NCBI GenBank assembly: GCA_000934665.2
Contig: JYFJ02002599.1
Span: 1 to 54,207 of the forward strand
Reading direction: 5' to 3'
From: Catajapyx aquilonaris
Lineage: Eukaryota
Length of the DNA: 54,207 bases
The translations under genes were made by a program, and so were the position numbers. Shown here piece after piece: positions 1-54,123 of this stretch (the first letter of the stretch is position 1; every line of letters begins with the position of its first letter). The notes below the pieces were generated by a model, which saw nothing but the letters and a program-made list of their open reading frames with translations, had not been told where the DNA came from and searched no databases.

Positions 1-1863
1 CACACCGGCGGTGCGAACACAACGCTGCACCCGTCCCTCGGCCCAACTTGGCCTCCGCGAGTGGGAAAAATCGTCGTGATCGTGCGCCCTTAATTCTAAG
101 TATTCATTCAATTGCCTTCTTTCTTCCACAGAAAGGGCTAGTAACAAGTGGCTGAATAGCATAACGACAGGGTTCCAGCACAGAATTAAAAATATTCACT
201 GATTGACAGTCCACCAGCCACTCCGTAGGCTGCATGTTTCTACTGATATTCGAGGTTACTGCGTAACTTGTAACATGTTCTAGCAATTTTCAAATCAGTC
301 AAGGGTAGGCTTCCGCTTATTGCACATGATTTAAAAGGCAAATGGTTTCACAAGAAAGACGTGTAATTTCACTGCCGGGACGTAAAGGCGTCTTAAAAAC
401 GTACCATTCTCTCAGGCAATTAGATCCTCCATCTTTTGTCCGTGTGATATATATGCATTTCTTATACAATATCCGTAATAAATAAATTCGAAATTTAAGC
501 ACTTCAATGTCACACTTATTGAAGGTTGGACGTTTACGGGCAATATGTCCGCGACTTTTGCTTGGATGTGATTCATGATGGGTTATTTACAGTATGCGCA
601 CGGTGTTCATTTACTGTGATATAAAGCCCGGAAATTCCATGTTCACAGCAACTCATGGTGTCATTCTTTCAGCTGAGCCATATCGTTTCCCATCCAAGGC
701 CAAATTGCATTCTCTCACACACCTTATAAATATCATTAATGGTGACAATAAAAGCCTCAGACTCATAGTCAGGTATATCTAGTTGAGTTTGAAAGGCACC
801 TTCGGAACTCAATAACATTATGAATAATTCAATAACTGCAGGGTTGGCACCGACCACCCTAATCGAATCTGAATCGGTGCACTGTTGTCAACATAACGGT
901 GAGCAAATTGCAAAAGCGTCATGTTGCATAACTTCTGCGTTATACGAAAGATTACGCGGACTTTAATATTGCTTCGCTCGTCTCAAGCACTCTTATGTAA
1001 CTAACAGCTCGCCACTGTCATTTTAATCACATTAGGTTCCGACATTGGCAGGAAGTAATTCGTCTCGTTTATAAATGCAAACCGTCTGCCGTATGCTATG
1101 CACTGAAAGACCTGTCTTTGATCTTCCTTACGTAATTATATACATACAGAAGAAGCGCAGCTTCGCAAATCCTGAGGCGATTCACTTTGGTGCTACACTA
1201 ATGGGTAGGTAGATTTACATTACCGCCAGTTTATAACTTCTAACCTTATTAAAGTCATCTGAAAGTCAACCTACTATCAAGTCATCTGAAACCCTGTGTA
1301 TATGGCAGTATCACTGACCATGTTCCGTATTTTCAGCGCGTGGAATGGAAGGTCGTAAATATCATCTCGCGGGGCATTAGCACAGTGTGTTATTATCGTA
1401 CGAGGTCGCCAAAACAGCACACAATTCATCCAATAGACGTGCCATTTCGGTGACAAATAGCCCAAAGCAAACGCATAATATATGCTGACGGGTTCAGCTT
1501 TTTCATCTTAGAACCGCGCAGTGAATGATCTCAACCCAGCTCATCCAAAGGGAAATCCCAGACATCCCCCTTTTGTTCACTTTGGCTTAATTTAGCCCGG
1601 ATGATCTCACTCAGATGACCCAGCCCATGACCTCCATGATACACAAATACCCCTGTAAGCACGTGCAGTCTGCGTGTCAACTTTTAATCACAACCTGAAA
1701 GGTGTCAGAGCAAAACACTCTTCCTTTGTTTGATGTACCCGGCGCCCTGTATAGCCGTTAACTCAAGTGATCCTTGAGAGCACCTATCAATCGACAAGAT
1801 GAATCACTACCGAAAAGCACCTGAGACAATCACAAATCGCGTCTCCATGGACACCCAACTCAC

Positions 1864-1967
1864 CACAAGTGAATCAGAGTCTGCACGTCGATATGTTCCT
1901 CCATTTCTTTAAGCCTGATTCGGTGATCCTGAAGAATGATCCCGCTCTCTTCAGTAGGGCACGCCAT
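1864..1967 (-). CDS. Probable first coding exon of an unidentified gene running off the left end of the window
   Basis: ATG at 1967 opens MACPTEESGIILQDHRIRLKEMEEHIDVQTLIHL and ends at a consensus donor TG|gtgagt (1863). GC-rich 1-88 could be the next (phase-2) exon, but its acceptor is weak. Confidence 0.4.
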
Positions 1968-3368
1968 GAGGAACTTCCTCTCTACTTTTTCCTCCGATAA
2001 ACCTCACCGCATATGTCGTGGAAAATCCAGGATGTCACCCCCGAACTGCAGCAGACCACGTGCAGCTTCCAGTGAGCACACGCATGGCAAATGAGTGAGC
2101 ACAACTTATTTACTTGTAAAGGGTATACGCCCCTTTAGATACATCAAAACCAGATAAACTCTCGGTCAAGGTTCGCGACTTCTGCAACGAAAAATATGTC
2201 ACAGTGTCCGCGACGTATGATGTCAGATATCATCACCTGAGCACCGCACCGCATATGCTGAAGGAAAGGCGGTGCTCCAATGATATAAAGCATGTGCCAA
2301 AGTGAAAGTCCTGTTACACCTCGACGACTACCGTATCCTTCGCTGAAAGACCGGTCATGCGACACTTGGACTGCACCAACACCCGGTAACTGTACTCAGC
2401 AATATCAACTCCATGTAATCTTTAGTGATATGATGAGATAAGTCGCGAATTTTAGCAAGTGGGCAACGTACCCTTATGGTCGCAAAACGTGAGTCAGGTA
2501 ATATATCGTGAGTCATATCAGGAGTTCATAATGGCCATATTTATAGCCGGACTACAATGCTACAGTTCATTGCCAAAGCAATATATGGGTCATCGATTAC
2601 CCCCAAAACATTTGCCTGCTGGTGTGGCACACCCTGCATGGAACATTGCAAAACTAGGAACTTCTATTTTGCGCTCGACATATTCCGTTACTGATTCAAT
2701 TGACAAAACCACAAAACTGACCTGCTCAAATACGATCGAGTAGACAACCTTGAAAAACATCAGGTGGATCGCCCACCCTCGCGACATCTACCAATCCCAA
2801 CCTGCACTACTGTACATATCGACCACCTTGGCAGATTAAAAAAATTCTGCAGTTTCCTTATTGTAATGTGTGTTGCATACAATACTCAGGAAGACATCGT
2901 TAACGAGATTAAAATCCGCGGATACTTGAGATATTCATGCCTTTGAAAGCAGGGTGGGTGTTTAAAAAAATTAAAGTCACGCTGTCGTGTAAAACTGTTT
3001 CCTCGGTTCTCCAAGACCTTCGCTTATATTTGACACGAGAAATGAATTCTTCACTCTTTGCCAGGAATGGCGTTAAATCCATGACACACTGACCCAGAAG
3101 TGCAAGCCTGGAAAATGCAGAATTCGCACAGATAATGTGATTAATTAACGGACCACGGTTTCTCTCACGCCTCACTTGCTCCGCTGTCTGTAAACATACC
3201 TAAAACCTTGCTATTGACTGGTTCCTCATTAAGCGCACCTTCTCTCAACTTTCTTATTGCCTCTCATTTGCCAAGAAGTTTTTCAAGTTTCCACATGGCA
3301 GATGCATTTAATGACACCTTGTTCAGATATTGAATATCACAGGTACAGGCTTCTCTCTAACGTCTAAA

Positions 3369-5000
3369 TCATTCTCCAATTTTAATAAGCTGCACAGCTT
3401 TGCAATTGGGATCAAAGTAATGATGTAGAATATTACTTTCATGGAGTAATGCCATAGATTCTGAGAGTCTGGATCACTCAAATGTTTCGTAAGCATGAGA
3501 GTACAGCAGTATGATACACTATATTACCACATATAAGGAAAAGCAGTTAGACATGAAATAAGCTGAAGCTATTCATGAAGGTTGATCAAATTAGATCAAT
3601 AGCGCAATATGTTTTTTAAACCTGGCATTTGGAATCCCCTTTGAAGGGATAGTTGTGAACCCATAAGTTCAGCAAGTTTGTCTACAGGTGGAGTTGAGCT
3701 GGATAACATGTGAACAAATTTGGTGGCATCATATCAGACATGCATGCTCCATGAACAAAAAGAGATCTGTTATTCGGCTTTGTGCCTAGATTGGACAAAA
3801 CGAATCCACATAAATTATATTGGCAAATGCAAGCACATCATGGAAAAGCCATATACCTAGCAGTCACTTTGTCTATGAGCAGTGTAAAAATATCCAGGAA
3901 GGGGAAAGTAACCTTGTCAGACGTGCAAGGTCCATGCCAAGTGAATGGAAAGGCGACAGGCAGAATATTTTTTACACCACTCGTATACATGTGCCTGGGT
4001 CAGACTCAGCAGGCCCATATTGTGCCTGCATTCTCCAATATTTTTATGAATTTTGTCCCCTCTATGCTCGAAACTGAATATGAGATTTCTCCTTGGTGAA
4101 TGTCCTGAGGAGGTGCTACCACTTTTAAACAAATGCTGTCAGACTCATGCTGCATACGGAGACCAACTACATGAAAATTCAAACAAACTTCTACCATCAG
4201 GCAACAGAGAAGGCAGTAATGATTTGCAGAAAAGAAAGAAGTAAAAGCAGATGTGTCACTCCTATGCAAACATTTACATGCAGTGTGTACATCACATTGA
4301 ATAAGCCTAACCTGGCACTACTGCTTACCTTTCCTCAATATTGAAGAGCACATGATCAGTCCGTTTAGTTCTTTCATCGCAGCTTGTAAGAGAGAAAAAT
4401 AAAATAAAACCATCAGAACAAACTCTCATAATATATTGAAGCAGTTGGTGCAATGAATGGCTTAAGGACCTTCAGACTTTGCAGCAATTCCCCTACAGTC
4501 ACATTTTAAATAGTAAATTGTTGTGCTTGCAAATCGCTTAAGTTATATCCTGCTGACACCCTACCATTATACACATTGTAAATGTTGTCTATAATACGCC
4601 ATCCTGTTCCATTAAATCTTCTGAATCCCTCAAATGCCTCTTTTACATTCCTGTAATTTTGTGTGTGAGTAAATGTTATGCAGTGACATAAAAATGTTTA
4701 TTGGTTAATTAAAGCAACGCCTTTCCACCCGAAATATCAAACCACCCATGCACATGAAGACTATGCATATGTTCCTTCCAAACTACTAAATACGACTGTA
4801 AGAGCAAATTATTGCAAAATGTAAGATTAGTCCTTCACCAGAAAAAAACCATTATGGCTACAAATGCACAAGATTCCTTACCTAAAGCAAAGGTGTCTGT
4901 TCTGGATCAGTTTGGCACGACTCATCTTCTCAGGAGAGTCAATCTGATCCTCACTATTGAGCGCAGAAAAGGCAGCTGCCAGCTGGACCTCCTCAGACAT
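3369..5000 (-). CDS. Uncharacterised ~183-aa protein, six short exons (ORF4)
   Basis: Phase-compatible exons 5000-4882, 4650-4565, 4382-4329, 4166-4026 (GC donor; otherwise stops at TGA 4006), 3681-3622, 3460-3369. Product MSEEVQLAAAFSALNSEDQ...RNVKEAFEGFRRFNGTGWRIIDN...LHHYFDPNCKAVQLIKIGE*. There is an in-frame TGA just upstream of the ATG and a 5'UTR intron at 5152-5014. Confidence 0.5.
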
Positions 5001-5152
5001 GATTCAGGTAGCTCTACACCAGAAGGAAATGTCATATTATCCATGTTCATCACCAGTTCATTTACCACTAGTAAAACATGTGCAAAGGATTCAGTGTAAC
5101 ATGTCCTGTGTGCCAATGTTTCAATCACAGGCAGGCAAGGATTTGAGCTCAC

Positions 5153-5385
5153 ATTGTGTCAGTCGAGGGTCAAAGCACGAGGCGTCAGGGGCAGCTGTGG
5201 CTTGGGCACCTGATGGGGGCAACACCCCTGGCACCTTTCACCCCGGCCTGAAACACAGCTGATCGGAAAGGAAATCCGAGGAAAATTATTGTCGCTAATT
5301 CGTCAGCGCGTCAGCCATGACACTCTCCAGTGGCGCCAACAGCTGGGGGAATATTTCGGGCATTGGGAGCGCGCGAAAATCGATC
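5153..5385 (-). promoter_or_regulatory. GC/CpG-rich putative promoter and non-coding first exon of ORF4
   Basis: Local GC island in AT-rich DNA; E2F consensus TTTCGCGC (5378-5371); donor AT|gtgagc at 5152 pairing with the acceptor at 5014. Confidence 0.4.
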
Positions 5386-6478
5386 AGAAACAATCAAGGC
5401 CAATTATCTCATGTCCAGTAATCTTAAATTAGAAGAAGAAGAAACAGAGGAGTCACCAGTTGCATCAGTTGATCTTCAATTCTGGGAAAATATCAGTGAT
5501 GACAAAAACAGCCTTACTTGATTGATAGCTTCACACAAGTCCTGTACCAGTGACATCAACCTGCAAAGTAAAGTTTAAATAATAGACAATATTATCTGAC
5601 AGTGAGTGAAGCTGTCAAGTTTAAGAAAAATACATTTATCATTGTTATATGTGTGCTTTATTAAAATTAATGTGAACACTGATGCGTGTTTTACAAGCCT
5701 GTCGTGTATTGGTACAAAATATATCATCACAATCATGCGGAATAACTATAAGTGCATGTTACTATCATATGCCATTGTAGCTGCTATGTCTTTGAACTTA
5801 GATTGAACCTTTGGTAAAGGATGTATGTTGCTGGATATTTTTTATATATCACTCTCTTACAAGGCCTTAGAAAACTAGAAGAACAAAAATTTCAACACCA
5901 GGGAAGCCTTCAAAAATTATATTGTATGTAGCAGAACAACTAAGCTTCACATTGAGAAGATAAGCATTTCTTTAATTGAACCTTTGGTAAAGGAATACGT
6001 TGTTGGAGATTTTTATATATCACTCTCTTACAAGGCACTAAAAAACAGCAAGAAAAATAATAATAATTCAACACCAGGGAAGCCTTCAAAATTGTAAAAC
6101 AACTAAGCTTCACATTGAGAAGATAAGCATTTCTTTTAAAACCAAATGACTAGACACATAATTATTTAAAAAAAATAACGGCTAACATCCATAACTTTGC
6201 ATTTGTGTTGTGCTGACTAAATATATTATAAACATATCTCAGCTTGCAAGCCAGGCATGTGCTGACGTTGAAGTTGACTTATATTTGTAAAAGTTCCCAA
6301 AAATATATAAAAGTACTTTGGTAGATAGGCACAAATGTCCTTATTATACTCCGGTTCCTCTGCAACCCTACTGCTAATGTCCCTTGATGCAAACATATTC
6401 TGGTCAGAAGTACTAGACAAACAATCTATCAGCCTCATTACACTTAATATTTCAGAGCTCCAAAGGCCATTAAAAAAC
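5384..6478 (-). CDS. Cryptic C-terminal exons (ORF3), possibly a long isoform of the F-box/LRR gene
   Basis: Exons 6478-6317 (FFNGLWSSEILSVMRLIDCL...ICAYLPK), 5560-5518 (LMSLVQDLCEAINQ, ttgcag/gtaagg) and 5422-5384 (ITGHEIIGLDCF*, long pyrimidine tract) join in phase 2/0. Confidence 0.4.
5802..6136. repeat. Imperfect tandem duplication, two copies of ~160-170 bp
   Basis: attgaacctttggtaaagga...aagcttcacattgagaagataagcatttcttt occurs at 5802-5973 and 5975-6136. Confidence 0.9.
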
Positions 6479-7105
6479 CTTTACAATACACAAAAACAAG
6501 TAAAAAAATGCAAACCCTATTAACGAAATGACCCAATGGGATTGATACAGAAGCTAATCTGTTAGCATTTAACGAAACCAATGCCATCTGCAAAATTCAA
6601 AGGTACCTGTCACAAAAAGTAATGGGATTCATAACATTAACAGAGGTAAAGAAAAATAATGATCATTATGCCAACAGGTTTTGAAATGATAAACAGCAAA
6701 GATGGGGTACTTTTGCACTACAAACGCAAGAGGATGAAAATCACTCAGGTCACCATATGACACTATCTTATTAGGCCAGTTTTGCAAAATAATAAAATGT
6801 AACTATGGTTTAAATGGGATTTGTTGGCTGAAAACCTTGATATTTCAATGTGGGCCTCCTTCACTGCTGCATTAAGAACATCTTAACATTACACCATATA
6901 CAACATGAACTCTAAAGCTTACCACTAATTGACTAATTTGATGAGCTCAGTTTGAACTTTTATTATTTGTGAACATAAGCCTAAGATCAACTCCTGCCAT
7001 ATTGGCAACAACCAAGTGCAGAACAAAAAGAAATTATATGTAGGGAATCATAACATCACATTCTTGCAACAAGTTGTGCAAAAGCAAGAGCTTTACACAA
7101 AATCC

Positions 7106-9316
7106 TCACATTCGAATGTCAGTTAAGACATTCACTCCCCCCGCAATTAACTTGATAACTGGTACTTCAGTAACGCAGGGGCAGGCGAGCAGCTGCACCT
7201 CCTTGAGATTCCTGGATCGAAGATTGTCAAAGCAGGACCCAGTGAAATCATCACAGGCTATGATGCTTAACCGGCGTAGCTTCCAGCAGTCGATGATAAC
7301 ACTCTCAACTCCCCAGTCATGCAGGGAACCACAGCGAGCCACAGTGAGGCTCTCTAGTCTAGGAATGCGGGACACAGAATTTAACACAGCTGCATTCACT
7401 GACAGGAGACCTGTCAGCTCCAGCACCCGAATGGAACGCATCTCTCTCCAAGTGAACAGTTTGCAGAGAAGTTTTGTCAGCCTGGTATTGTTTTGTGATG
7501 CCCTGCTGGATATGCTGGCATCCAACACCAGATGCTGAAGACGCACACAATTCCTCAATTCTACAAGTGATGGCATGCTGATTTCCACACCCCGGAGCTC
7601 CAGGCTCGTCACCGAGTTGCTCACCCTCGATAAGAGATCCACGGTCTTGTGATCAGAGCCCATCCTGCAATGATGGAGTACAGAGTTATTTCACAAATAA
7701 TGATCGTGGGGTATACTGATCAGGATGATGGATAATTTTTCTACCAACTAGTACATAGTTATGTCTACAATAAAATAAAAACCGTGAACAGGGTTGAAAA
7801 AGAAAAGTTTAAAAAATGCTTTTGCAGGGCCCTGTGATTCCTGGGTCATGCATGGCTAGCGAGAAAATTAGAGATATGTTTGCCGAATTACCATTAATTT
7901 TAATGGAGCCAAATTCTTGGACATGTGACTGATGAAATGCCATACATGTTTTTCTGAGTGCATTTTACAGAAAAACAAATTTCATAGGCACATTCTACTC
8001 GCGTTTCTCTTTCATTTGATGTACATGTTGATTGGGTTTTGACCACTTCCAATAACTGAAAAAAAATATCCAGAAAAGGCCCCATTTTCAAAATTTTCGC
8101 GATTTTTTCCCTCCCCACAGTACTTCGCAATTTGGCTGAAACTGGATATGCAGTGTTACGGCATAGGTGTGTACAGCTGTGATTATTTTCAGAAAAATCC
8201 GAGATGGTTCAGCAACATTTAGGCCCACTTGATTGGGAAAAAAACTGCTGTATTTGACAATTTTGGTTTTTTGCCTGCTCCGAGGTCAAAAACAAATCAA
8301 AGACAAAATGAATGCCTATTATGAGTTACTTGTGACCTAAGGAACACGAATATGAGGATGAATTTCCATGGACAATATCGTGTTGCATAGTGCACCATTA
8401 CACATAAAAGATACCATGTGTTTCTGAATTTGTCTGACATCTGTATCGGTAAAAATGTCATACACCTGACTAGAGAAGGAAGGCAAGGGAAAAGTTGTAC
8501 ATAGAGGAATGCGGCTTTGGTCCATACTCCAGCTTGAACTAGGCAGGACGACTTAAGAAAAGGAGTGCTGTTCCACTTTAAGCAGGAAGCCATGAAATTT
8601 CCACCAATGCAAATATGGGCTATAAATAGAAACACACTAATAATGTCACATGCTGATACAGACACATTTCAAATAGCTGAAAAAAAGCAGTTCACAACTT
8701 TCCTGCCTCAATGAGGTCAGAAAAAGGCTCAAAAGCCTCAAAAATTATAATTAAGTTGAAGGATCAGAATAAAGCATGGCACATGATACTTCAGAAAAGT
8801 ACAAAATAATACTTGCCTGTGATAAGTTGATATCTCAAGAAACTGCAGTCCAGGAAATGCTACACCATCATGAACATTACTGCAACGCTTATTGGCTTTT
8901 GTCACCTTTTTGCAGTCAGTCAACCTCACAGAACTCAGGTGAGGGCAGGCCAATGAAAAATGCTGAAGTTCCAGGATTGGCACCATGCAAAAGTGCATGT
9001 ACAGTGCAGTTACTTGCACGCAGTTCTGGGCCACAAAATTCAGAATGGCTGCTACCTGGTGCTCATTCCATTCAGCAATCCGTAGTGTCTGATTGCCTGA
9101 CTCAGGATTGATCTGGACTTCAAACAATTTTTCGTACTTTGTCTCAAGACAGAATTCCTGCCACAATTGCTGCCTCTTTGACAAATCCTTCAGCTTGTGG
9201 CACACCTGAGGAATGATAACAAGGCGTTCATACGCAGGGACGAGCCCAAGTATACGAATTAGGATTTCATCAGGAAGTTGAGTCAGACAAGTAATTGGGC
9301 ATCGTATCATCTCCAT
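7106..9316 (-). CDS. F-box and leucine-rich-repeat protein (FBXL-like), ~352 aa, two exons
   Basis: Exon 1 9316-8817 has an F-box (LTQLPDEILIRILGLVP...VCHKLKDLS...LW). GC donor AG|gcaagt (phase 2) joins acceptor ttgcag|G at 7664. Exon 2 7664-7106 has Cys-containing LRRs (LESLTVARCGSLHDWGV; LRRLSIIACDDFT; LKEVQLLACPCVTE). AATAAA at 6964-6959. Confidence 0.85.
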
Positions 9317-9331
9317 AACTAGGACTTAGAC

Positions 9332-12300
9332 TTATCGAAACAGGATGGCACCAAGTATAACAAGAAATTCCACTGCTCCTGGGATGGCAGAACCAAATCC
9401 AAACACCCACCAGAAGGAATTACAGTCCCATGCATCAACAACAAAGTAGGCCAATGCAACAGAAGCACTGCAATGAGATGCAATAGCTAGACAAGCAAGT
9501 TAAGGTTTGTAAATAAACGTGTTTTGATTTGGATATAGCATAGCATAGCTTCAATAGGTGACATGACACTCAAAATGCAAAGGATACAGATGAGTGCCAC
9601 AGTTGGCATAAACATAGAAATCCCCGAGAGCAATCCAAAAATTTCCAAGCCTCCCAGCCCCAGCGCAACACTCAGTCCAACCATCAACCTGAAATGAACG
9701 TAATATCACATATCCTTTACAAATTTAGTCTATAGTCGACACTGCAGACTGGGAAGCTCAAAAAAACATTGAGGGAATGCAGAAATACAGAGAGGAAACG
9801 AAACATCTGGCATCATTTCACATCCTTTGGGGCTGCCTGATCACCACACACTTACCATGAATAAGACATGCATGAAAACATCACCTCTAATTTTAGTGTT
9901 GAAATGGTGCTTTTCTTAGCGGATTCGGTAAGAGGCACGTAGAAAGTAAAACCTTGCATATGAAGTAGTGGAAGCATTACTTCGGCTTTCTGGATTGGAA
10001 AAGGAAATAAATGCTTGATTGATTTTTTACTGTGTCGACTACTGGGGCACTTACCTTACCTATCCGTTCTTAGAAACCCCTAATCTCAATAATATGTACG
10101 AGTTATTTGTTATGTAACCAATCCCAAGTTTTTATAGTGAATATAATTTCCTTGTTAAAAATAATACTTAAAGACCATAAAGTGAACAATTACATGTACA
10201 GTGTAAATTATGTGCCATTTCCATCACAGGTCAGGGAACCATTACTAGTGCATGCTCATCAGATACTAACATACTGGGATCCAGACTGGTGGCAGTCCTT
10301 TTTCCAGCTTGTGTATGTGGGTGTTGTTATAATATATTAACAACTACATAAATCCCGTGTACACGTGGCCATAAATCCCCGCAACAATCCCGTACATCCT
10401 TATGACAATCCCACAAATCTGGTGTACATTAAAATGGTTAGTTGTTACCTTTTACCCCACTTACATTTAAAAAGTGTCACAACCAAATTTCTCATAGTGT
10501 GGCAGACTTAATTGGTTGAATCTGCACTACAGGAAGGTGGGACAGAAAAGCAACACATTCAGGCCCAGCCAGGATGGAAAATTGCCTATTACTTATGCAC
10601 ATAATTGTTCACCTACTGTGCATGTGCAGGAATTACAATATATATTCAGTTTCTGGAATTTTCCTGCTCCAATTCCAGAGCATACGGGGTGAAGGGAAAC
10701 TCGCGCCAAATAGCCAGGTAGACTGATAGTACTCGCAAAACTAATATAGGGATGTGCAAAATTAGTTTTTGGCACCAGTGCATAGTTAATGTATATGGCA
10801 CCTTTAAAGTGTAGAGGGCCGTGTGGTAAAATATGAGGTAAAAATCACAATGGGCACGGGTGTTGCACCCAGATTCTTACTCTGAACGGATTTGATCGCC
10901 TATTGCACGTGGACGATGTGTTAGGGGACCAAGGCCGGATTATTTGGAGGTATTCGAGCTGGCTTTTGCTTTTTAAACTGGCAGAGCAGATGTAATGTCA
11001 CGAAACTTTAAAGGTGCCATACACACTAACTACGTACACTATGGTGCCCAAAACTAACTGCACATCCCTATACTTTAGTGGGGGCTTAACGTCGGTCTAT
11101 TTCTGCCGCTAAGGCTGAACACCGACGGCAAGGGGTGGTCCTCCTCCTGGAAATTTGGCCACTCTGGGGATCTTTAACGTGCACTTGCGCAATGTCACAA
11201 GCACACGGGACGGACAGCTCCACTTCCCCTCTGAAGGAAGGCGCACTCTCACTTATCTACCACCCGGAGAAAAGTCACCGACCTTGGTTAGGTTCGAACC
11301 CACAACTTTGGGACTAGAGGTGTGCGCGCTAACCACCAGACCACCAGCGCCGGCTGCACATCCCTATACAGTGGGACCCACTTATTTGGACCACATCGGG
11401 GCCAAGGCATTTTGGCCCAATGAAGCGGGGGTTTGATTAACCGGGGTTCATGTGAAACGACAGAAAAAAAAATGCAAAAAATTAGACTGCACTACCAGCT
11501 TTAATCTAAAAAATCTCACAACAGGTAAAATCGATGTATAAAAGTGCCTGTGTCATGCAAGTGTCATGGAAGTGCAAAGTACTGCACAATAATTTTAGTG
11601 CTCACTTCGCTGTAAAAAAAATGGTCTAGTAACACCTGTCAGGTTCTTGTTTTTGACTTCATGTTAACAAAGTCCGTGCAGGTGCCAAAGTGCAGTCACA
11701 GGACCGCCGTCATTCCCTACTTGCATAAAAAATCGTCTTAGGAATGGTCCCTTAATCACGAGCCCACAGGCGTTGCAGTACAGTATAGCATTATAGCAGC
11801 CAAACTGGTCCGACTAACAGGGGAAATCACCAGCTATGCAGGGGAAAATGACACTTATGGTATTGATTTAATTCTGGTCCTGGCGATAAGGTCCAAAAAT
11901 ACGAGGGGCCCAATAAACCGGGTCGCACTGTATTAGTTTTACGAATACTATCAGTCTACCTGGCGATTGGGCATGAGTCTCCCTTCACCCTGTAAGTTTC
12001 CCTCTAGGTATCTCTGAAGTTGAAAATAAGTGAAAATGAACGGAGATTGCAGCACTGTTGACTTTGCAGGGGATGGAGGCACATCAACATGTTTCGGATT
12101 CCCTGGGCTGCTGCATAGCGATTTAGCGAGTCAAAAATTATGTTGGTCTCAGACTACAGTAGAATAATCTGACCTCAGATTATTCAGCTGTCCTACTCCA
12201 GCAATAAATGCATGTTTTCTCATCAAATACTGTAATGCACGCCTACTAATCATTTGTTTTGTACTGCCTTAGTTAAATTTCAAACACCAGAGAGTGCATG

Positions 12301-13024
12301 TAAAAGATCAATACTTCACTATTTCGTAGAAAAGCATAATATTGTACATTATTTCATGATTTTAGTTGCGTTTTCCTTTGCTTCTCTGATTAAGGCCCAT
12401 TCACACAGGCCGTCGACGGTTTTGGTTTTTGGTCTCGTCGACGCCGCGGACCAATAAGAACGGGCCCACACGTAAACAACGCGTCATGGTTACCGTGAGG
12501 GCCCGCTCTGATTGGTCCAAAACCAAAACCGTCGACGGCCTGTGTGAATGAGCCTTTATCCGACCTTTTCTGTTATCTGACAATGCTCCGGTCCCATGGG
12601 TGACGGATAATCAGGGTTCTACTTTACTACTTTAAGATCCACCCATTGTTGTGCAAAAAATTGCCTCACCTCAATATCCATGCCTGATACCATCATGGTG
12701 CAACCTTCAGTTTAACCAATACGCCACCATAGTAACCACAATCTTGGCCTAGTCACACACACACACCTTCCACAAACGACAAGGGAGCAACTCACTCGAA
12801 ATCCTTGGCCTTGTACTGGTCCTGGCCGTACTCTAAGGGCAGACTGGCCTTCACGTTCTCCTCCTGAAACAGACCCAGTTCAGAGAAGAAGTGTTCCAAC
12901 CTACGTACGCCAGCGGCCTCTCTCTCTCTCTCATTACCCTGGCCAAGAGGATGGAGGCGGCGATGCAGAGGTGGGCCACCAGGGTCAGGAACCGGGTCGG
13001 AAGGAGGCCGTTCCCTGCGTACAT
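9332..13024 (-). CDS. TMEM107: Transmembrane protein 107 (ciliary transition-zone protein), 136 aa, four exons
   Basis: Exons 13024-12938 (MYAGNGLLPTRFLTLVAHL), 12863-12796 (EENVKASLPLEY), 9688-9588 (GLSVALGLGGLEIFGLLSGISMF), 9486-9332 (SIASHCSASVALAYFVVDAWDCNSFWWVFGFGSAIP). Matches recalled TMEM107 motifs (LVPSRFLTLLAHL, LSGVSMF, AHCSASVAL). Confidence 0.93.
9487..9587 (-). other. U12-type (minor spliceosome) GT-AG intron of TMEM107
   Basis: 5' site GTATCCTTT at 9587; branch point CCTTAAC at 9505-9499, ~10 nt from the AG at 9488-9487; removal restores the TMEM107 frame. Confidence 0.93.
9733..10041. mobile_element. Possible degenerate MITE
   Basis: Short inverted termini tagtcgacac...gtgtcgacta; no internal evidence. 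Confidence 0.3.
10747..11070. mobile_element. MITE with ~65-bp terminal inverted repeats, TA-flanked
   Basis: tagggatgtgca..ttagttttt ggcacca..tatggcacctttaaagt matches the reverse complement of actttaaaggtgccata..tggtgcccaaaactaactgcacatcccta. Confidence 0.85.
11074..11353 (-). mobile_element. tRNA-derived SINE with a Nin/Deu-like central domain
   Basis: Minus strand has A box TGGTCTGGTGG and B box GGTTCGAACC, core GTGCACGTTAAAGATCCCCAGAGTGGCCAAATTT, and a perfect 16-bp TSD ctgcacatccctatac at 11058-11073 and 11354-11369. Confidence 0.9.
11369..11930. mobile_element. Non-autonomous pogo/Tigger-like element, TA-flanked
   Basis: Termini cagtgggacccacttatt ... aataaaccgggtcgcactg, with TA on both sides (11367, 11931). 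Confidence 0.75.
12393..12555. mobile_element. PIF/Harbinger (Tourist-like) palindromic MITE
   Basis: ~37-bp near-perfect TIRs aggcccattcacacaggccgtcgacggttttggtttt; TTA target duplication at 12390 and 12556; the interior is also palindromic. Confidence 0.85.
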
Positions 13025-13079
13025 CACCAAGCCCCCAAGGACACCTCACGCTCCCTGCCTGGCCCCTATTCCATCCGAA

Positions 13080-13200
13080 TTCCAGGCCGGAAGTAGGCGG
13101 AAGCCGGCTCGGCTCCAGTTCAAACCAACGGCTTTGTTTCAACTACAATCGACGCCTAAATATGGCGCCGTTGTGTGGCGCATGCGCATTATGGAATTAG
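13080..13200 (-). promoter_or_regulatory. Housekeeping-type promoter of TMEM107
   Basis: ETS CCGGAAGT (13087-13094), YY1-like AAATATGGCG (13158-13167) and NRF1/Ewg GCGCATGCGCA (13178-13188) in CpG-rich DNA 60-170 nt upstream of the ATG. Confidence 0.65.
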
Positions 13201-13402
13201 GTAGGATCGATTCCAGGCGCGTCGTTCGAATTGTGATGAGCATTATTTTAATATTGTACCAAAGAGGATAACAGCTATTATACGCTTTGGTAAGTTAAAT
13301 AATTGCGCAGTACTGCACCGAGTGGAAATAAGCCATACTTTCAACTCCGCTAAATTGAGAGAGGAAAAAAAAAAAAATGCCAGCTGACAGGCCACATCCG
13401 AT

Positions 13403-14582: not shown

Positions 14583-17500
14583 TTAATCGGTGATAGTAAG
14601 TTGGGCAAACCCTATAAGCGCCTTGTCATCTGGTACTTCATTGGGCCCACAACCAGAACTCTGGAACAGGAGAACAGACGAGTTACACATAATACTTGTT
14701 GCTGCATGATACGGTATGAAAAATAGAAGAAATGCAACTGACCAGCGCAAATGTGAGGTTCTTGCAGGAAGCATAACTGCTGCTGGTGATCTTATGCAGA
14801 TTGGCAGCAATCACAACCATGTCCCTCCCATCCACAAGCCCTGCTCCAACTAATTCCGATGCTATTCCTTCTGAGCTGTCCTTGCCAGGGACAAACTCAA
14901 ACCGGATGTCATTCAGCTCCCGACGACAATTTCTAAAATGAAAGTAACAGACAGTCAGCAGGACAGTTTGCTGTTTCAGATGTGTCCTGTGCCCATTTAC
15001 ATGAAAATAATACTACTAGTCACTGAAACCTTTCAATACATACCTCATTCTGAGAACAAGGTTGATAGGATCGTGTTCTTTAGGTGGCTCTGGCTGTTGC
15101 GGCACTGCAGCTGGAGGAGTAGGTTGAGGGGCAACAGGCCCAGGGACAGACATGGGTGTTGGGGCAACAGGTGCTGGTGCTGCCTGTGGGGGAGACACTG
15201 GGACTGGGGGATGAGGTGCTGGGGGTGGAGGGGTGGCTGTAGGGGCAGCAGTAGGAGCAGGGGTTGTTGCAATGGAAGGGGCTGGGGGGCTTGTAACAGA
15301 GCTTGTAGTGGAGGAGACACTGTCTCTGTGCGCCAAAGGCTGGTTCTCCTGAGACTGAAGTGACTGTGTTGGTGAGATGCCAGAATCATCTTTGCTGCTG
15401 CCACTGGATGACACTGAGTTTGTCACTTCGCCATTGGGTGGTTTCGATTTTTCTTCATTATCCTTTGAAATGAAAATAGTCACGTGTCACTTCAGAAATA
15501 CTGCAACATTGCATGCAGAAGTGCGTGCCTGTTATTACATAGTAATGACTAATGAGCAATTTGTGGGAGCATAGTATATCCTTTCGGGAATATGTCACAA
15601 TCTTTGATTGACAAACAGGATATAGGGAATGTTCCAAATGGGAAGGCATGTTATTTACGCCTGCCTTGGATGGATGCAATCCTTCCTTTCATTCTGGATG
15701 GTTATGAACAAAATGGAAAAGCAGAGATGCAACCAAGTTAGTGAAATGAATGTTTTTTTGTCAAGAAATTAAAAATGCATTCATCTGCTGGCTAGTGGTT
15801 TTCCCACTAAGCTGCAATGGCCGCTTCATTGTTTTCTTTGCCAGACAAGCATAATGAGCCAATAACTTTACCACCATATCATTTCTAATCACCAATTATA
15901 TTTCAAGGTGCAAGCATTAACACAGAAGCAATGGGCATGGAAATTCAGCTGAAACTACTCTATAGTACTGCAATAAAGAGCTTCGCTGCAAAAATCACTG
16001 GAGCTGCAGTGTGCTTCCGTAATTTGCTCCAGAGAAGCTCATTAGTGAAGTAGGCCCAAACTACACCACTGCCTCTACTCAGATTTATGCTGGGTTAGTA
16101 AGGGCATGTTGCACAATCAATGGTCAACATGTGTCTCATTAACAAGTGATTAATCACTTTTTCTGGATTTATCTGAATTGTACAACTGACCTTATGCCAC
16201 AAAAGTAATGCACTCATACTCTTGTCTGAATCAGTGCAAAATATATCAATGCTTCATGATAACAATGACACAAACGCAAATTACCTCATCTTCCGAATCA
16301 TCTCCGCCACCTTCTTCATCAGAGGACCAAATCCACTCTCCTGTTACTGTTCTATGCAACTTTCCTGATGCTCCAGGCTGTCTTTTCGCTGCCTGCATGT
16401 TCAGGACACATTTTAGATTATGTTGCACAAGAGAAGAGAAAAACTTACCTTCTGAACTCTCGTTTCCAAACTTGGACCACATGCTAAAAGAGTCTGTTGA
16501 AGATACCTTTTGTCCTTTGCTTTCTTGAAGAACTGATGTTTCAGTAATTCATTAGCAGTTGGCCTGAATTCATCAAGACAAGTATCATCAGTAAAGTAAT
16601 GAGTACTATACCTGCGACGACACATTATTAGATATCAGTACCTTTTCGTTGGATCCTTCTGAAGGCAGTCAGCAATCATCTTCCGAAAGGTCTTTCCGTA
16701 TATCTTGTACTGATCCTTCTCCTCTGCCCCAGTGTCGATGGTAGGTGGATCATTTTGCAAAGTGAGCATCAGTACCTTCATTGGTGGATATTTATGATAT
16801 GGAGCAGTTCCAGTGGCCATCTCAATTGCAGTTATGCCGAACGACCAGATATCTGCTTTGAAATCATAGCCATGATCCTGCTCCATGACTTCTGGAGCCA
16901 TCCAACAGGGGGTGCCAACGAAAGTGTGCCTGACTTTCTGCCTGGAGAGATCTCCACCAGTAGCCAACCAGGCACTGACTCCAAAGTCAGCTATCTGGAC
17001 AGTTCCATCCTCACCAAGGAGGATGTTGCCAGCCTTAATATCCCTAAAAACAGATGGGATCAATGTCACATGAAGTCATTTTAAACAATCCAAAATGTAA
17101 TAAAATGTAATGGAATGCAGGTTATGCATATTAGTTATTGTGAGTGTTACAAGTCATAGAGCCGTAGAATGTCTAGGTTTTCAAGTGTAGCACGATTATT
17201 GCAGTGATATTGACAAGTTATCACATGACTATCAACAAAAAATGCATTACAATTTTTTTCCATCCTTTGCATTGTGGTTATCATGGACTATGCACCATAC
17301 TGAAATATATATATCAGCTGACGAAAGGTTTGGCAGTTTGTAAGGAGCATCACATTAACAAGAACCAAAATAAAGCCTCATATTCACCCTTGAAAATTAC
17401 TATTTCAATCAAACAAATCCAGCAATAGTACACACGTAGTAAATTTGTCATCCTAATATTTACAGTTGCAATCAAATATTAGGAATGAATGTTATCAATT

Positions 17501-19527
17501 CTCAGGAATGCTATCTGCAATGTAAGCAAAGAATAGATATCTATTATGTTGACACGTTATCCTAAATAAATAAATGTTTTGACAATGTCTGTCACAGGTC
17601 GGGATCACCCTTGCTACTAAACACCTAAAGGAAGAGCTCAAAATAGAGCAAGACACTCACCTATGTATCTGCCCATTGCTGTGGAAATACTCCAGTCCCT
17701 TGAGCACTTCCTTGAGCACTGTGGCAATGGTGTGTTCATCAAACACTCCATGCTTGCAGTCTGAAGTCTTTATCTTGTGCTTGATGATGTCAAGAAGTGA
17801 GCCACCCTCAAGCAACCTGAGGACCAGCCACAGCTCTTCCTTCACCACAAAGCTGGTGTAATAAGTTACTACATTCTCATGGTTGCACGATGACATGGCC
17901 TGAATCTCCTTCTGGACATTGTAAAGAAGGGAGAAAATAACTCGTTAATTAATTGCCCTAATGTTTTCCAGAGGAGGAGTGATAAAAATAATTTATAATG
18001 AAATTGGGCAACGAACCAACAGTTCATCCATACTCGTGTTCCACTTCTCTAAATTTATCCTCTTGATGGCGCATTTCTCCTGACGGGGCTTGCAGTATGC
18101 AGCGTGAACAGCTGCAGTTGCACCCACACCTGCCAAGAAGTTTAATCATCTAATTAGTCACTTTACTGTAGGGCCAAGTGCCCTGTACTCAAATCAACAT
18201 ATGCAACAAATGTGGGTTACCAACTATATGGGTAATTAAATCAAGCTAACTTTAACACTGTCCACTTTAATGGCAAGTTGATGCTGCAATGTATGAATTA
18301 CACGATACTGCAACTTCAGAAGCATTTTTAAAAAGCAGTATCTGATTGACCAAAGTTCAACTGTAAATTATAGAGTCACGAATTTCTTGTTGAATACAAA
18401 TTACTAAAGCATCACTGCATTAAACTTGAGAATTTTGGTGTCAATATACTGTAAATGCCCAGTGCGTGATTTGGCAATGCCAGTCAAGCACCTGCTGGGT
18501 CACACCTTAGCGTACCAGATTCTGGCATTGGACCAGCAGTGTAATGACCTTAACATGAACAAACACATCATCCCTGCACGTGGAATTATTTGTGAGTCCA
18601 TTACCGACGAACACTACAGGCCTGCAGCCATACTTGTAAACACTAATGCCACAAAACAATGTTATTCATCATATCGATGTGTAATACATTACATCACAGA
18701 ATTTAAACTAGCACAGCATAATTCAGGCTAGATTGTGTACGAAGCACAATAAAACAAATTAAGTGAATGCACTCGTGCTGCCAGAAGGTTTTTTCAGTCT
18801 ACAAACCAACCATTAAGTGCTAACTGCTGCTAAAATGACCTTTTTGTGCCTGATTTCTTCTACTTTCAAAATTAGTAAAGAGCTAACTGTAGTTTAAAAC
18901 TGGCTCGAAGGTAATAAGTTTTATATGGCCCACACCTTTTAACAGTTAGAGCAACCAGGCAGATGTTAGCGCATCTGCAACTCTCACCAACTGGTCAATA
19001 TTTGCGTTCAGCTGATGGCAACATGCACCAGCAGCTGGACCTAATCTTACAACATGCGACCCAGTGGGCATGAACATTGCACCAACAAACCCAGGCCTAA
19101 TTACATAACGCAATAAGCCTTGCAATAAGCGCAACACCCCTAATTCGGTCCAGCATCGTGTCGTCTGCCGCCACACTCCGTCTCTCTCGTTCCAACTCAG
19201 TCAGCCCCTGGCCTTTCCCCGCATCCCAAATTTCACCAAAATTTATTCCAACAATCCCACCATAATTTTCCCCCCAAAAAATCTGCCCAATGCATTAAAT
19301 ATATTTTTTTTACTCATGCCCACATTGACCCTCATCTATAGTAATTTTTTTCCCTCCCCCTCTAGATGAGAGGGTGGGTGTCATCTCCCTGGTCCGACCC
19401 TGGATGCTCCAACTGTGTAGGCCAGACCCCTGAAGGTTGAGGACTGACCTATGACCTCCCTGAGATCGTAGTCGTCCCTCTGGTTGGCCCACCCCTGGAC
19501 CGCAGTGCCGGTGCCGCTCTCCGCCAT
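14583..19527 (-). CDS. fray: STE20-family kinase frayed / OSR1 / SPAK orthologue, ~584 aa, nine exons
   Basis: Exons 19527-19449, 18129-18017, 17911-17661, 17043-16642, 16563-16449, 16392-16285, 15462-15044, 14932-14743, 14660-14583, all phase-consistent. Motifs [42 protein letters not shown], and the C-terminal CCT domain (LNDIRFEF...LIGFAQLTI). Confidence 0.97.
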
Positions 19528-22500
19528 CTTGTGGGCCAGGATGTCACCTAGGCTCGCTCTGGCGGACCGGGGGAGAGTCACGTACGGGGGGAGCTCCGAG
19601 GAGGCCGACTTCTTGCGGAATGTGCCAGGGCTGCCCGGGGGCATCAGACCCGGACTTATTTTCCTGGGAAAGAAAAGAGAAAAAAAAAATGGTTGGAAAT
19701 CAAATGAGGGGTTCAAATATCGCGCGCCTAGAGGCATTGGCACCACTGGTTGGCCAGGATTGGATGATGCGGATCATGTGACCTTGCAGGGGTGCCAATG
19801 ACACTTCGGGTGTTCAACTTTACTGAGTCGAAACTGCTGCCAAGTGTTGGCAATGTGAAGGCGATGGTGCCAAGGACGGAAAGTCTCCCGAAAAATTGGT
19901 GGCTATAGGAGTACACTATGGAAACAAAATTATTTTTTTTCTCTGGACGTTGGGCAGAATGTGGGATTTATCCGGGAATCGCCAACCGGAACTGAATTTT
20001 CAGAAGCCAGCTTTTTCGCCACTTGTTGTAACCGAAGCAGAGATATTCAGACATCAGGATAATATATCAGAGAGATCTGGTGTACGGATTGTGTGTAAAT
20101 GAATGACACACGCTCATTATTTTGCACACACCTAATGATCAGGAAAATAGTAGTTGGTAGATGAGAGATGAGAGGAGTAACGCAATACTGATCATGCACA
20201 AGCTGCATATACACAGCAATATTATTTCAGCGCTTTAAAATATCGATCAGATGGAGAGAAAAAAAAAATGCCATTACTTGAGCAATTTATCTGACGACAC
20301 ATTCACATCCGACACAATATGGGATACAGTATACAAAAGATGTTGAAAGAGTCGGTTTGTGCATGCATGACAGAGCTCGTTTCTGTCAATTGCTGTTATT
20401 TAAATGGCTGGAAATTCCAACCTGTTTCTCTCTCCACAGTCTACTAATTAGACCTGAAATGTGGGCATCCTGCGATCATTACCGCCTCATGGGTAAGTCC
20501 CAGAGATCCAAGTGTAAAGGGTATTCACTGTGTAACATTTTCATTTTCCCCGAGACGTCTTATCTTTATCATCAGCAGACGCAAGTCAATGTGACGTCAC
20601 AGGATTTTTCTCGAGTACTTTCACTGCAACAAATAAGTGGCTATTTTTTTCTATTGTTACGTGATTTTTTGGTTTATTTTTTATTGCCCCCCCCCCCTCC
20701 AAATTCTGACAAATAAAATTGTCATATCGCACCCTGTGGTCACTGCTAGTAGTCTCTCACTAACAATAGCGTATGCGGCAATATTCGTGAAAATATAACG
20801 ACCATGTCCATTTCTCTGCAGGCCACATACACTGTAATTGCTGTACAGAACACATTTCATGTAGACTCGCTCTTAATGCCGTATTAATTTTATTACGAAG
20901 GAATAGAACGCATCTATAGCAATGGTATACGAGACAATGCCTTAAACATTTTGAAGGATTTTACATTAATTTCTACTCTGCCGTGCAATGAGGCATTGGA
21001 ATAATCAATGATATCTGATCTTTTATTACAGTGCATGATATGTAATATATTATATTGGCATTCATGACATAATTTCAGGGATTAATTCTGGCCCCAGCCA
21101 CATTACAGGTACCGGTACTATAAAATGCAGTAGATAACAATAACGGGAAAACCTTCGAATTGTGAAGCCAGCAGATTCCATCAATAGCACAATTGGTTTC
21201 ACCTGACATTTTATCCACGTCACCTGACATTTAATCCCTTGTTCACTATCGAAATCAGATGCAATAAATCCTGACAGTATCATAGGATTTCCGGGGGACT
21301 GGCAACTTTTTGCTGGCCTATTCGGCCATGATTCCAGTCGGTCCAAGCACACTGTTTATTCCTTCATAATTGAAGGGTTCAAGGGCGACTATAGCTCTCT
21401 CCATTTCGTATTCCAACACAAGGCGGAGAGTTAACACGGCAAAGAACGGGAGCCAATACAAGGAAGCACGCACGATTTGTCGAATGAAAAATTGTGTCAT
21501 TACATGATAATCCGCCTTGTTTTCAATTCATGTCAGGTTGTCACCCACAGACGTCACAATCATCCCTAAATCAAACACTCCAAGGCTATATACCTTTTTG
21601 TTCCTTCCATATTTAAAAAAAAAGTAGTCGCAATAATTGTTGAAAAACTACATTATTATATTGAGTAGACTGAAAACATTGTGGAACCATTCAGCATTAT
21701 GTTGTCCATATAGGAGTGAACGAGAAGTCGAGGCAATATCAGAATGGACATCCACTTACATTATTGCTTCTAAAAGAGCGTTCAAGTTCAAGAAATGCCA
21801 ATTCTTTTTCAGCTATCACTTTGACGCGCAGTGGATTATCTATACGACATACGCACGTATAATGTGTAGGCAGTTTCCGCCTTTACGCAAATAAAAAAGG
21901 ACCAACAAATCCAATATGCAATATTATTAAGCTGTAATAACAGCATCCGTTAAGTGAATGTCTCTAATTTTAAGAGACATGTCACAGAACATCTGGCCGA
22001 GAAGACCTCAAAGGCTCCTCCAATTTGCACAAGGTGAGTAATTTGGAGACAGTGCCTTGCTGGCTAATATAACTGTGGACGTCACATGCGGATATCCTGG
22101 AGAGTGGATCCAATAAGGAGCATAATTGGCTGGTGTCAGATTTCAGCAGAACCAAGTCTTGAGAGTGCAAACAGAAGTGATCGCTTTGTCGCCCCGCCAA
22201 ATTTACAGCCCCCAATAAGGAACCCTCTACACCCCCCCCCCCCCCACTACCTGTCAACAGAGCACTAATAATTTCCTAGAAATTAAAAAATATATATTTG
22301 ATTTGGCATGTTTCCTCGTAAATCCTGTGCCTAAACTATAGTCAAATAAATCTGACAGTTGGCTCTAGAGTGGGTGTCATCGTCGAGCGTAGGCAGATAG
22401 GTTTTATGGCAGAGGCGAATCCTCTTCTTCGTCCTTTCCGGTTTAATAAAGGTGGCCCAAGTGAAGTGGGCCACCATGATGGCTTAGGTGCCATATTGGT

Positions 22501-34531: not shown

Positions 34532-34820
34532 TGAATGTAAAATAATCAGCTGACATGAAATCGCTGCCGAAACAGTATTCAGCATTCCGTCCGTCATGCA
34601 TTCAAAACCACTGCATGAAAGAGTCTAACTGAGTGTTTCCTATTTACTGCCTCATATTGCAGAATTCCAGTCACAGCCTTTTGAATGCTATGGCATGCAC
34701 AATGTTCCTAATGGTCACATAATTTGTCTGCAGGATATGTGAAAAATAAACAAACCTTGCAAATGGAAATTGTCATTATTTTTTGTTAAAATCCTTCTTC
34801 ACTTTACATCCCTTACTCTC

Positions 34821-52800: not shown

Positions 52801-54123
52801 GGACTGATGTCCTTTCTACGACTCTCATGGAGAGTGTTTCGGTTGTTGCGATGGTCGTGAGGAATCGGCTCTAGTTTGATTATAGTCTCGGCATTTGAGG
52901 ACTGTATTATTTTAGTTCTGCATGGTGGGTTGGATGATGGAGGCGGTGGGGGTAGCTCGTTGCATTGTCGGCGACAATCCCGCAATTTGCTGACATCGTG
53001 TCTTCGGGCTGGTGGCATTGGAGCCATTCCTTTTGAGTGATGAACTCCGTTTCCGGAACTCTTTCTAGTCCTGGACAAAAAATGAGATAAAATAGCATTT
53101 TCAAGCTGGAGGAAAGTGTGACACAGATGCTTCTTCCGTTTTTTTATCGGGCTGAACATTTTCATGCTCAAAAGCTTTGTTCCGGCTTTTAAAAAGTGTG
53201 TATGTATGATACGGTGGTCGGTCATCTTGGCTGTGTCAACGAGAACTCGCGGATGTAAAAGGTACTGGAGCTGAGCTATTTTCGTGACTCTTTGACACAA
53301 AAGAAGGAAGGCGTATCCATTCCATGCGGTTAGATACTGCATATTATAATGGGGAAGCCAATACCCATATTTTGCTTTCGATTTGCAATGGTCTAACCCG
53401 TTATAACCGCGCCTCAAAAAGCAATTTAGTAACACTCTCTCCACGAATCGAAACGACTTTGGAAGGAGCATCAATCACATCGGGAAGATATAGCGGAAGG
53501 GTGTGAAATATCCATTGTTGCAATCCATACCGAGACGGAAGTTGCCTTTGAAGCTGCTGGTTGTCCGCCAACGACTGCATGCTGAAGAACTTTTCCATCA
53601 GCGGATTTCTCATGCTCATCGGAAGACCAGGTTGAAAGAGTTCATATGTTTCGCTATGGGCTCGGTATATTTCCTCCTCCTCTTGGGGCAGTTCCTCCTT
53701 CTCCGGATGCAGTCTGAACCCTTTCTTACCGGAAAATGTTCCAAACCTCTTGAACTTGGGACAATTTGTAGGGCCCAGACTTCGGTCCATGAACTGGTAA
53801 GCCCCACTCGGAGTCGCAGGCAATGGTGGTCCACAGATCGGATGCAACGGCGACCTTCTTCCGGACAACCCTTCCGGATGGGGCTCGCCACTTGGGACAG
53901 CCGAGATTCCATCATGAAACTGCTGGGGATGCTGGCGTACCCGCTTCTTCTTCTTCTTCGGTTCCCGGTAGAACCAAGTGTAGTTTCGAGAAGCCAGGCC
54001 CCATCCTTTGGGTTGCTCACACTGAGGGTTGTCACCGGAAGGAAACTTGTTCCATGATTCCTCCCCGGTTGATTCGACGCAGCAATAGCACGTTCCACTG
54101 GAGGAGCTCAAGACACACCCCAT
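44389..54123 (-). CDS. forked: Espin/forked actin-bundling protein, ~1447 aa, 14 exons
   Basis: Exons 54123-53531, 53070-52057, 50604-50415, 49953-49771, 49483-49361, 48589-48267, 48082-47880, 47545-47197, 47139-46976, 46266-45945, 45456-45167, 45096-44918, 44861-44671, 44608-44389, all phase-consistent. Ankyrin repeats ([19 protein letters not shown]), [40 protein letters not shown], actin-bundling module [15 protein letters not shown]...IPAWKRQLL. Linkage of the first two exons is less certain. Confidence 0.88.
45702..45926. repeat. Inverted-repeat-bounded element (MITE-like) in an espin intron
   Basis: acgttgacattacgaagttac ... gtaacttcgtgaggtcaacgt (21 bp, 2 mismatches). Confidence 0.55.
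46501..46647. repeat. Short inverted repeat, probable MITE remnant
   Basis: gaaatagcgccagtt ... aactggcgctatttc (15 bp perfect). Confidence 0.55.
46832..46877. repeat. (AATA)n microsatellite
   Basis: About 11 perfect units seen directly. Confidence 0.95.
48168..48226. repeat. Perfect 25-bp inverted repeat with 9-nt spacer
   Basis: ttatgtggttggacatttcatgatg-taattattg-catcatgaaatgtccaaccacataa. Confidence 0.92.

Follow-up and report, generated by a model that had tools for sequence, protein, structure and literature searches.

TMEM107 and an FBXL-like gene separated by 15 nucleotides: a candidate dicistronic transcription unit

Background

Dicistronic genes of Drosophila (FlyBase class gene_with_dicistronic_mRNA; stoned, Adh/Adhr and mei-217/mei-218 among them) combine two unrelated open reading frames (ORFs) on one strand, served by a single promoter upstream and a single poly(A) signal downstream, and their downstream ORF needs non-standard initiation. 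One account of these loci (PMC4528330) gives 159 annotated dicistronic pairs in D. melanogaster and, where only polycistronic transcripts exist, stop-to-start distances of -34 to 319 nt. Here we describe a locus with the same layout: TMEM107 and an F-box/leucine-rich repeat (LRR) ORF, 15 nt apart and thus within that range, both on the minus strand of contig JYFJ02002599.1 of Catajapyx aquilonaris (assembly GCA_000934665.2). All coordinates are positions in the window, by which we mean the whole stretch of 54,207 nt that was analysed. Its spliced genes, its gene-body CpG depletion and the lack of bacterial features identify the window as animal nuclear DNA.

Two other systems also bring an upstream stop codon and a downstream start codon close together. 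The spliced-leader (SL) operons of Ciona intestinalis consist of same-strand cistrons with an AG before the downstream cistron; as described in PMC1488885, their cistrons adjoin without intercistronic DNA, and an AATAAA near the upstream 3' end is missing from 16 of 18, while operons of Oikopleura have spacers of 23-30 nt. In viral termination-reinitiation, known from caliciviruses and influenza B and directed by a termination upstream ribosome-binding site (TURBS), the second ORF starts very near the stop codon of a long first ORF.

An earlier, sequence-only reading of this DNA had called the arrangement of TMEM107 and the F-box ORF undescribed. This holds for the pair itself in the literature searched: judged by titles and the beginnings of abstracts, no publication describes TMEM107 in a bicistronic, dicistronic or operon arrangement or with an F-box neighbour, and no TMEM107 or F-box/LRR pair occurs in the 12 supplementary files of PMC4528330 that were searched. 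It does not hold for the kind of arrangement, which is well known, as the same article makes clear.

Our present results describe the structure of both genes, the junction between them and the transcription signals around them. We propose that TMEM107 and the F-box gene likely share a transcription unit. We put at about even the chance that TMEM107 and this lineage-specific FBXL-like gene form one unit giving rise to a processed dicistronic mRNA.

Results

The junction between the two ORFs

The TMEM107 stop codon (TAA 9334-9332) and the F-box start codon (ATG 9316) are located on one strand, as the sequence-only reading had placed them, and can be read directly as TTT CGA TAA ... ATG GAG ATG. 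They enclose the following element:

9317..9331, minus strand: 15-nt spacer GTCTAAGTCCTAGTT, read directly, with an in-frame TAA at 9328-9326, a TAG in frame +1 and an AG at 9320-9319

The F-box ORF lies in the frame of TMEM107, and the two are linked by TAA GTC TAA GTC CTA GTT, a tandem TAAGTC TAAGTC with two in-frame TAA codons. The gap had been said to hold no poly(A) signal, promoter or pyrimidine tract. Fifteen nucleotides indeed leave no room for the first two, but the denial of a pyrimidine tract was too strong. The AG at 9320-9319 sits 2 nt before the F-box ATG, and pyrimidines make up 60% of the 20 nt before it, compared with 65-70% at the four modelled acceptors of the locus; background AGs (n = 374) have a mean of 51%, and 29% of them reach 60%. 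At the DNA level, an SL operon would show cistrons on the same strand within 100 nt of each other and such an AG ahead of the second one, and both features are present here.

The TMEM107 gene

TMEM107 is modelled on the minus strand with four exons encoding 136 amino acids (aa):

12938..13024, minus strand: coding part of exon 1 (ATG 13024), matching positions 1-20 of the Pfam profile PF14995 (E 0.041) and followed by GTAATG
12796..12863, minus strand: exon 2 (22 aa), flanked by TTTCAG and GTGAGT, its frame open only with the end at 12796
9588..9688, minus strand: exon 3, matching PF14995 profile positions 48-79 (E 9e-4), its donor set by the frame
9487..9587, minus strand: intron 3, 101 nt, with U12-type signals, GTATCCTTT standing exactly at the donor (9587-9579)
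9332..9486, minus strand: exon 4 with the stop codon TAA 9334-9332, matching PF14995 profile positions 81-122 of 123 (E 1.7e-12, 48.2 bits)

Exons 1, 3 and 4 were scanned singly against PF14995 (cut-off 26 bits). Exon 4 scores above the cut-off and exons 1 and 3 each stay below it when taken alone; the three matches follow each other in the correct profile order, as expected of a member of this family. Since exon 4 matches the profile almost to its end (122 of 123), TAA 9334-9332 is the normal C-terminal stop codon. A comparison of exon 4 with longer proteins gave 13 candidates, none of them significant.

Intron 3 carries both signals of what we take to be the U12 consensus, GTATCCTTT at the donor required by the reading frame and CCTTAAC 12 nt ahead of the 3' AG. 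The donor motif RTATCCTTT has four matches in the window, where 1.08 are expected; the other exact matches are located at 25502-25510 (minus strand), 9710-9718 (plus strand) and 15576-15584 (plus strand). These U12-type signals independently fix the model of exons 3 and 4. According to a preprint (bioRxiv 10.64898/2026.08.20.745718), the human and zebrafish TMEM107 genes have a U12-type intron. The last intron of TMEM107 described here may therefore be an ancient, conserved U12 intron.

Inverted-repeat elements make up most of intron 2 (9700-12800). One has 67-nt arms (10683-10749 and 11928-11994, 87%), another has 33-nt arms (10778-10810 and 11005-11037), and a third is a CpG-rich 179-nt palindrome with 45-nt arms (12385-12429 and 12519-12563). 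A stretch near 11360-11290 looks tRNA-like by eye and is called as a tRNA by neither ARAGORN nor Rfam; in the whole window, ARAGORN found no tRNA genes, and Rfam gave no matches at gathering thresholds.

The F-box/LRR ORF

Downstream of TMEM107, an intact ORF of two exons and 352 aa extends from ATG 9316 to TGA 7108-7106:

8817..9316, minus strand: exon 1, with the F-box at residues 11-57 (PF12937, E 2.5e-8, 34 bits; PF00646, E 2.3e-7, 30.9 bits)
7665..8816, minus strand: intron, GC-AG in the preferred model, with donor CAG/GCAAGT at 8817 and acceptor TTGCAG
7106..7664, minus strand: exon 2 with the stop codon TGA 7108-7106, matching the LRR part of FBXL2 (6o60_C, E 2.8e-6)

Both F-box profiles score above their cut-offs (24.3 bits for PF12937 and 20.5 for PF00646) and place the F-box near the N-terminus. 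LRR-type similarity covers residues about 80-160. An alternative in-frame GT donor at 8925 would shorten the protein to 316 aa. Among solved structures, the closest relative of exon 2 is FBXL2, with the E value given above, followed by Skp2 (E 0.056) and a weak match to FBXL17; the Pfam model LRR_RPS2 matches exon 2 at E 0.0029 and 18 bits, below its cut-off of 27.9. An AlphaFold model of exon 2 alone shows alternating strands and helices and, at a predicted local distance difference test (pLDDT) score of 44.9, is too weak to count. The predicted order of domains, an N-terminal F-box and then putative cysteine-containing leucine-rich repeats, would be that of the FBXL family (FBXL2, Skp2, FBXL17); the ORF is orthologous to no named FBXL, and its Pfam LRR matches stay below cut-off.

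The start codon at 9316 has G at both -3 and +4. The F-box begins at residue 11 and an in-frame TAA stands four codons ahead of the ATG; the ORF therefore requires no coding exon further upstream.

Database searches returned only distant relatives of the predicted protein. HMMER, run against 1.84 billion representative proteins, gave 19 weak matches at E<=0.001 and none at E<=1e-30, and in 16 of the 19 the best stretch was confined to the LRR part. A word-indexed search of longer proteins gave 130 candidates, none significant; 164 pattern matches in metagenome contigs yielded no confirmed relative, the ESM Atlas returned generic F-box clusters only, and comparison with solved ciliary F-box/LRR chains gave no match at E<=1. 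A scan for target-site duplications or repeats flanking the gene revealed short chance repeats only. Since TMEM107 and OSR1 of this species are likewise absent from the protein collections, sampling accounts in part for the lack of F-box orthologues. These comparisons indicate that the putative F-box gene is, at the least, fast-evolving or confined to its lineage, and its pairing with TMEM107 is probably young, because no close F-box relative was found among the 1.84 billion representatives.

Transcription signals

Two regions on the minus strand could delimit a transcript across both genes:

13001..13400, minus strand: promoter-like, CpG-rich stretch before the TMEM107 start codon (CpG observed/expected 0.94-1.23)
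6959..6964, minus strand: AATAAA poly(A) signal, the first canonical one after either stop codon

The CpG ratio was computed in 200-nt bins, a test that non-CpG promoters escape. It amounts to 0.13-0.61 at 9600-9200, around the F-box start, and to 0.0-0.8 in most bins of 13000-6800. The view that the sole clear promoter lies upstream of TMEM107 stands in so far as a CpG-type promoter is seen only at 13400-13001; it needs the qualification that a second CpG-rich block exists at 12600-12401, although this one coincides with the palindromic repeat of intron 2. The promoter-like region contains GCGCATGCGC and ACTTCCGG, which may be NRF1/ETS-type motifs. The X-box (RFX) motif was discarded as evidence: it has 22 matches, compared with 26.5 expected, and none at the promoter.

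We scanned for 14 poly(A)-type hexamers. The 515 nt between the TMEM107 stop codon and the end of F-box exon 1 contain none of them, and neither do the 1074-nt spliced path from stop to stop, its continuation as far as the AATAAA at 6964, and TMEM107 exons 3-4; their density in the window is 7.0 per kb. Codon shuffles of F-box exon 1 (n = 2000) contain 2.21 hexamers on average and none in 8.1% of cases. If canonical signals are used, the TMEM107 transcript therefore runs at least through F-box exon 1. The AATAAA at 6964, which the sequence-only reading had noted after the F-box ORF, is confirmed as the sole AATAAA on the minus strand between 9700 and 6000. The sole ATTAAA downstream of the TMEM107 stop codon (7904) is found within the F-box intron, together with four variant hexamers. 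At the DNA level the locus thus presents what is expected of a dicistronic gene: two complete, non-overlapping coding sequences on one strand, with no hexamer and no CpG-type promoter between them.

Translation signals at the junction

On the spliced mRNA, from ORF1 to the start of ORF2, there are 6 AUGs, compared with 6.3 expected from composition, and thus no AUG depletion. The junction RNA (9420-9240) was folded and compared with 200 shuffles; it is less structured than these (-36 vs -42.9 kcal/mol, z +1.77), and 194 of the 200 fold at least as well. By this comparison, no stable structure like that of an IRES (internal ribosome entry site) or a TURBS is present at the junction. The pentamer complementary to 18S rRNA, which we take to be the TURBS motif, occurs once, 92 nt upstream of the TMEM107 stop codon; in the window it has 86 matches against 114 expected. 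TURBS-type termination-reinitiation was rejected on account of these features. The locus resembles the viral cases in that the second ORF starts very near the stop codon of a long first one, but the two codons are 15 nt apart and do not overlap, the junction folds poorly and the pentamer is at chance level.

Neighbouring genes

The order of genes on the minus strand is an OSR1/STK39-like kinase, TMEM107 and the F-box ORF. Further genes and exons of the window are:

14586-19800, minus strand: OSR1/STK39-like kinase gene (Pfam Pkinase and OSR1_C), coding end near 14586 by blastx
34400-37500, minus strand: DUS3L (Dus, zf-CCCH_DUS3L), by Pfam on ORFs
41709-41990, plus strand: Reeler-domain exon, by Pfam on ORFs
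49663-50028, minus strand: ankyrin-repeat exon, by Pfam on ORFs
52056-53474, minus strand: 473-aa ORF with no Pfam match

The OSR1 coding end is located about 1.4 kb before the TMEM107 promoter. For the OSR1 kinase exon (17043-16638), identity is 93-95% to many insects, none of the 120 matches listed being identical to it, 83% to a nematode match and 57% to a rotifer match; its identity to human OSR1, counted from the alignment, is about 82%. The other parts of the kinase, N- and C-terminal, are 40-67% identical to insects. When this exon was used to look for synteny, 535 of the 598 metagenome stretches were relatives, the best of which (89% identical) lies on a 2.4-kb contig and is useless for synteny.

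Discussion

The layout of the locus suggests co-transcription. This is the most economical reading, given the lack of poly(A)-type hexamers between the genes and of a CpG-type promoter ahead of the F-box ORF, but it falls short of proof: poly(A) signals are avoided in coding regions in any case, and the CpG test does not see promoters of other kinds. Transcription would start at the CpG-rich promoter upstream of TMEM107, at about 13.0-13.4 kb, cross both genes and end after the AATAAA at 6964. The spliced RNA would then carry both ORFs 15 nt apart, in the manner of the Drosophila dicistronic type. We infer both the existence of this processed dicistronic RNA and its role as template for the F-box protein. 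Translation of ORF2 might proceed by internal or 3'-untranslated region (UTR)-type initiation, or by low-level re-initiation at the well-placed AUG, and we rank these routes above leaky scanning. An unstructured start site that has G at both -3 and +4 would be in keeping with initiation at a low level, either internally or after termination.

The sequence-only reading had gone further, proposing that one transcript encodes both proteins, that the second is made by re-initiation, and that a ciliary gate protein is thereby coupled to a ubiquitin-ligase adaptor. The first of these ideas is retained in so far as the layout fits one transcription unit. Re-initiation of ORF2 finds no positive support, with an ORF1 of 136 codons and no stable structure at the junction, and the coupling of the ciliary gate to a Skp1-Cullin-F-box (SCF) ligase is pure conjecture for an F-box protein with neither an identifiable orthologue nor a ciliary relative. 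In its most far-reaching form, the proposal would have an obligate dicistronic mRNA in a lineage without spliced leaders: ribosomes that complete the 136-codon TMEM107 ORF, targeted to the endoplasmic reticulum (ER), would resume 15 nt on, and the SCF adaptor would be made at the same membrane site, tied stoichiometrically and spatially to TMEM107, and would act on ciliary-gate or ER-membrane clients. We regard this as quite improbable.

Several points weigh against a processed dicistronic mRNA as the source of the F-box protein. For one, the absence of hexamers carries little weight, given the 8.1% of shuffles that contain none and the fact that any gene avoids such signals within its own coding sequence. 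The AG at 9320-9319 may serve an SL operon or an alternative 5' exon. Leaky scanning is unlikely because ORF1 is 136 codons long and its AUGs are as numerous as composition predicts. Re-initiation after long ORFs is inefficient in the absence of special elements. Where nonsense-mediated decay (NMD) depends on exon junctions, the layout would be prone to it, as the TMEM107 stop codon is 516 nt upstream of an exon junction. Finally, protein and metagenome-contig searches brought up no related locus and no F-box relative.

The two proteins may instead come from separate, overlapping mRNAs. The F-box gene would then have its own start in TMEM107 intron 2, intron 3 or exon 4, or a non-coding 5' exon joined at the AG 9320-9319, and its protein would be made from a monocistronic mRNA; the TMEM107 mRNA would carry the F-box sequence merely as 3' UTR, or end in the F-box intron near ATTAAA 7904. 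Drosophila offers precedents (PMC4528330): of the 159 dicistronic loci, no more than 45 rely on dicistronic transcripts alone for both proteins, a monocistronic alternative existing for one gene at 69 and for both genes at 45. The ATTAAA and the four variant hexamers of the F-box intron are consistent with such an arrangement, as is the pyrimidine share of 0.60 before the AG, which counts against a dicistronic template as well, and the three inverted-repeat elements of intron 2 could supply a promoter. However, no CpG-rich or otherwise recognisable promoter is found near the F-box start, the sole other CpG-rich block is the 179-nt palindromic repeat 3 kb upstream, and no donor-bearing upstream exon was identified. 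We consider separate mRNAs somewhat unlikely. The AG acquires a different role in a Ciona-type SL operon, where the precursor would be cut at this site, the upstream part would be polyadenylated as TMEM107 mRNA with about 13 nt of 3' UTR, and a leader would be added 2 nt before the F-box ATG. The common strand, the 15-nt gap, an AG with an acceptor-like pyrimidine share and the missing upstream AATAAA all agree with the Ciona operons described above, and the short spacers of Oikopleura operons fit as well; because most Ciona operons lack AATAAA, the missing poly(A) signal does not exclude this explanation. We nevertheless judge it distinctly unlikely. So short a TMEM107 3' UTR counts against it, and an ordinary CpG promoter of TMEM107 itself follows 1.4 kb after the end of the OSR1 coding sequence. 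Gene-body CpG depletion and the U12-type intron, as these traits are distributed among nematodes, flatworms and rotifers, speak against all three groups. The OSR1 exon differs from the consensus of the matches listed at only 5 exon-coded positions, which, with its closer identity to insects than to the nematode and rotifer matches, would indicate a slowly evolving lineage, unlike tunicates.

The two remaining explanations deny the F-box ORF an independent function or an independent start. It could be a passenger of the TMEM107 3' UTR, young or in decay; it would then be transcribed, translated little or not at all, and free of selection. The searches agree with this, having found no orthologue among the 1.84 billion representatives, in the word-indexed collection or in metagenome contigs, and only 19 matches at E<=0.001; yet the same protein databases lack TMEM107 and OSR1 of this species, and the absence of orthologues is partly a matter of sampling. 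Moreover, the reading frame is uninterrupted for 352 codons over two spliced exons, the F-box is recognisable, the putative LRRs are regular and the start codon context is good. A mere passenger is very improbable in our view. A TMEM107-F-box fusion protein could arise by readthrough of both stop codons or by in-frame splicing of exon 3 to the AG at 9320-9319; both ORFs are in one frame, and exons 1-3 add up to 256 nt, which makes a junction to 9318 in-frame. Sharing a frame is, however, a one-in-three coincidence. Readthrough would have to pass two tandem TAA codons, TAA being the least leaky stop, and the exon 3 donor is of U12 type, while no U12 branch motif precedes the AG. Double-TAA readthrough and splicing from exon 3 to 9318 were rejected on these grounds, and we find a fusion protein hardly credible.

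A processed dicistronic mRNA of the Drosophila type, which we continue to propose, would differ from its fly counterparts in its host, which is not close to insects, as the N- and C-terminal parts of OSR1 indicate.

Conclusions

If real, the TMEM107/F-box locus would be a further case of the layout known from fly dicistronic genes. Should AG 9320-9319 prove to be a trans-splice site, the locus would be an ordinary operon, and with a start site of its own for the F-box gene it would be an ordinary gene overlap. A processed mRNA carrying TMEM107 and the F-box ORF would, by contrast, provide a clean dicistronic example, probably outside insects, in which both ORFs are long and the second cistron contains an intron, and a natural case for initiation of a second long ORF 15 nt after a long first one. 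It would also single out an uncharacterised FBXL-like protein as a candidate for co-expression with a gene of the ciliary transition zone.

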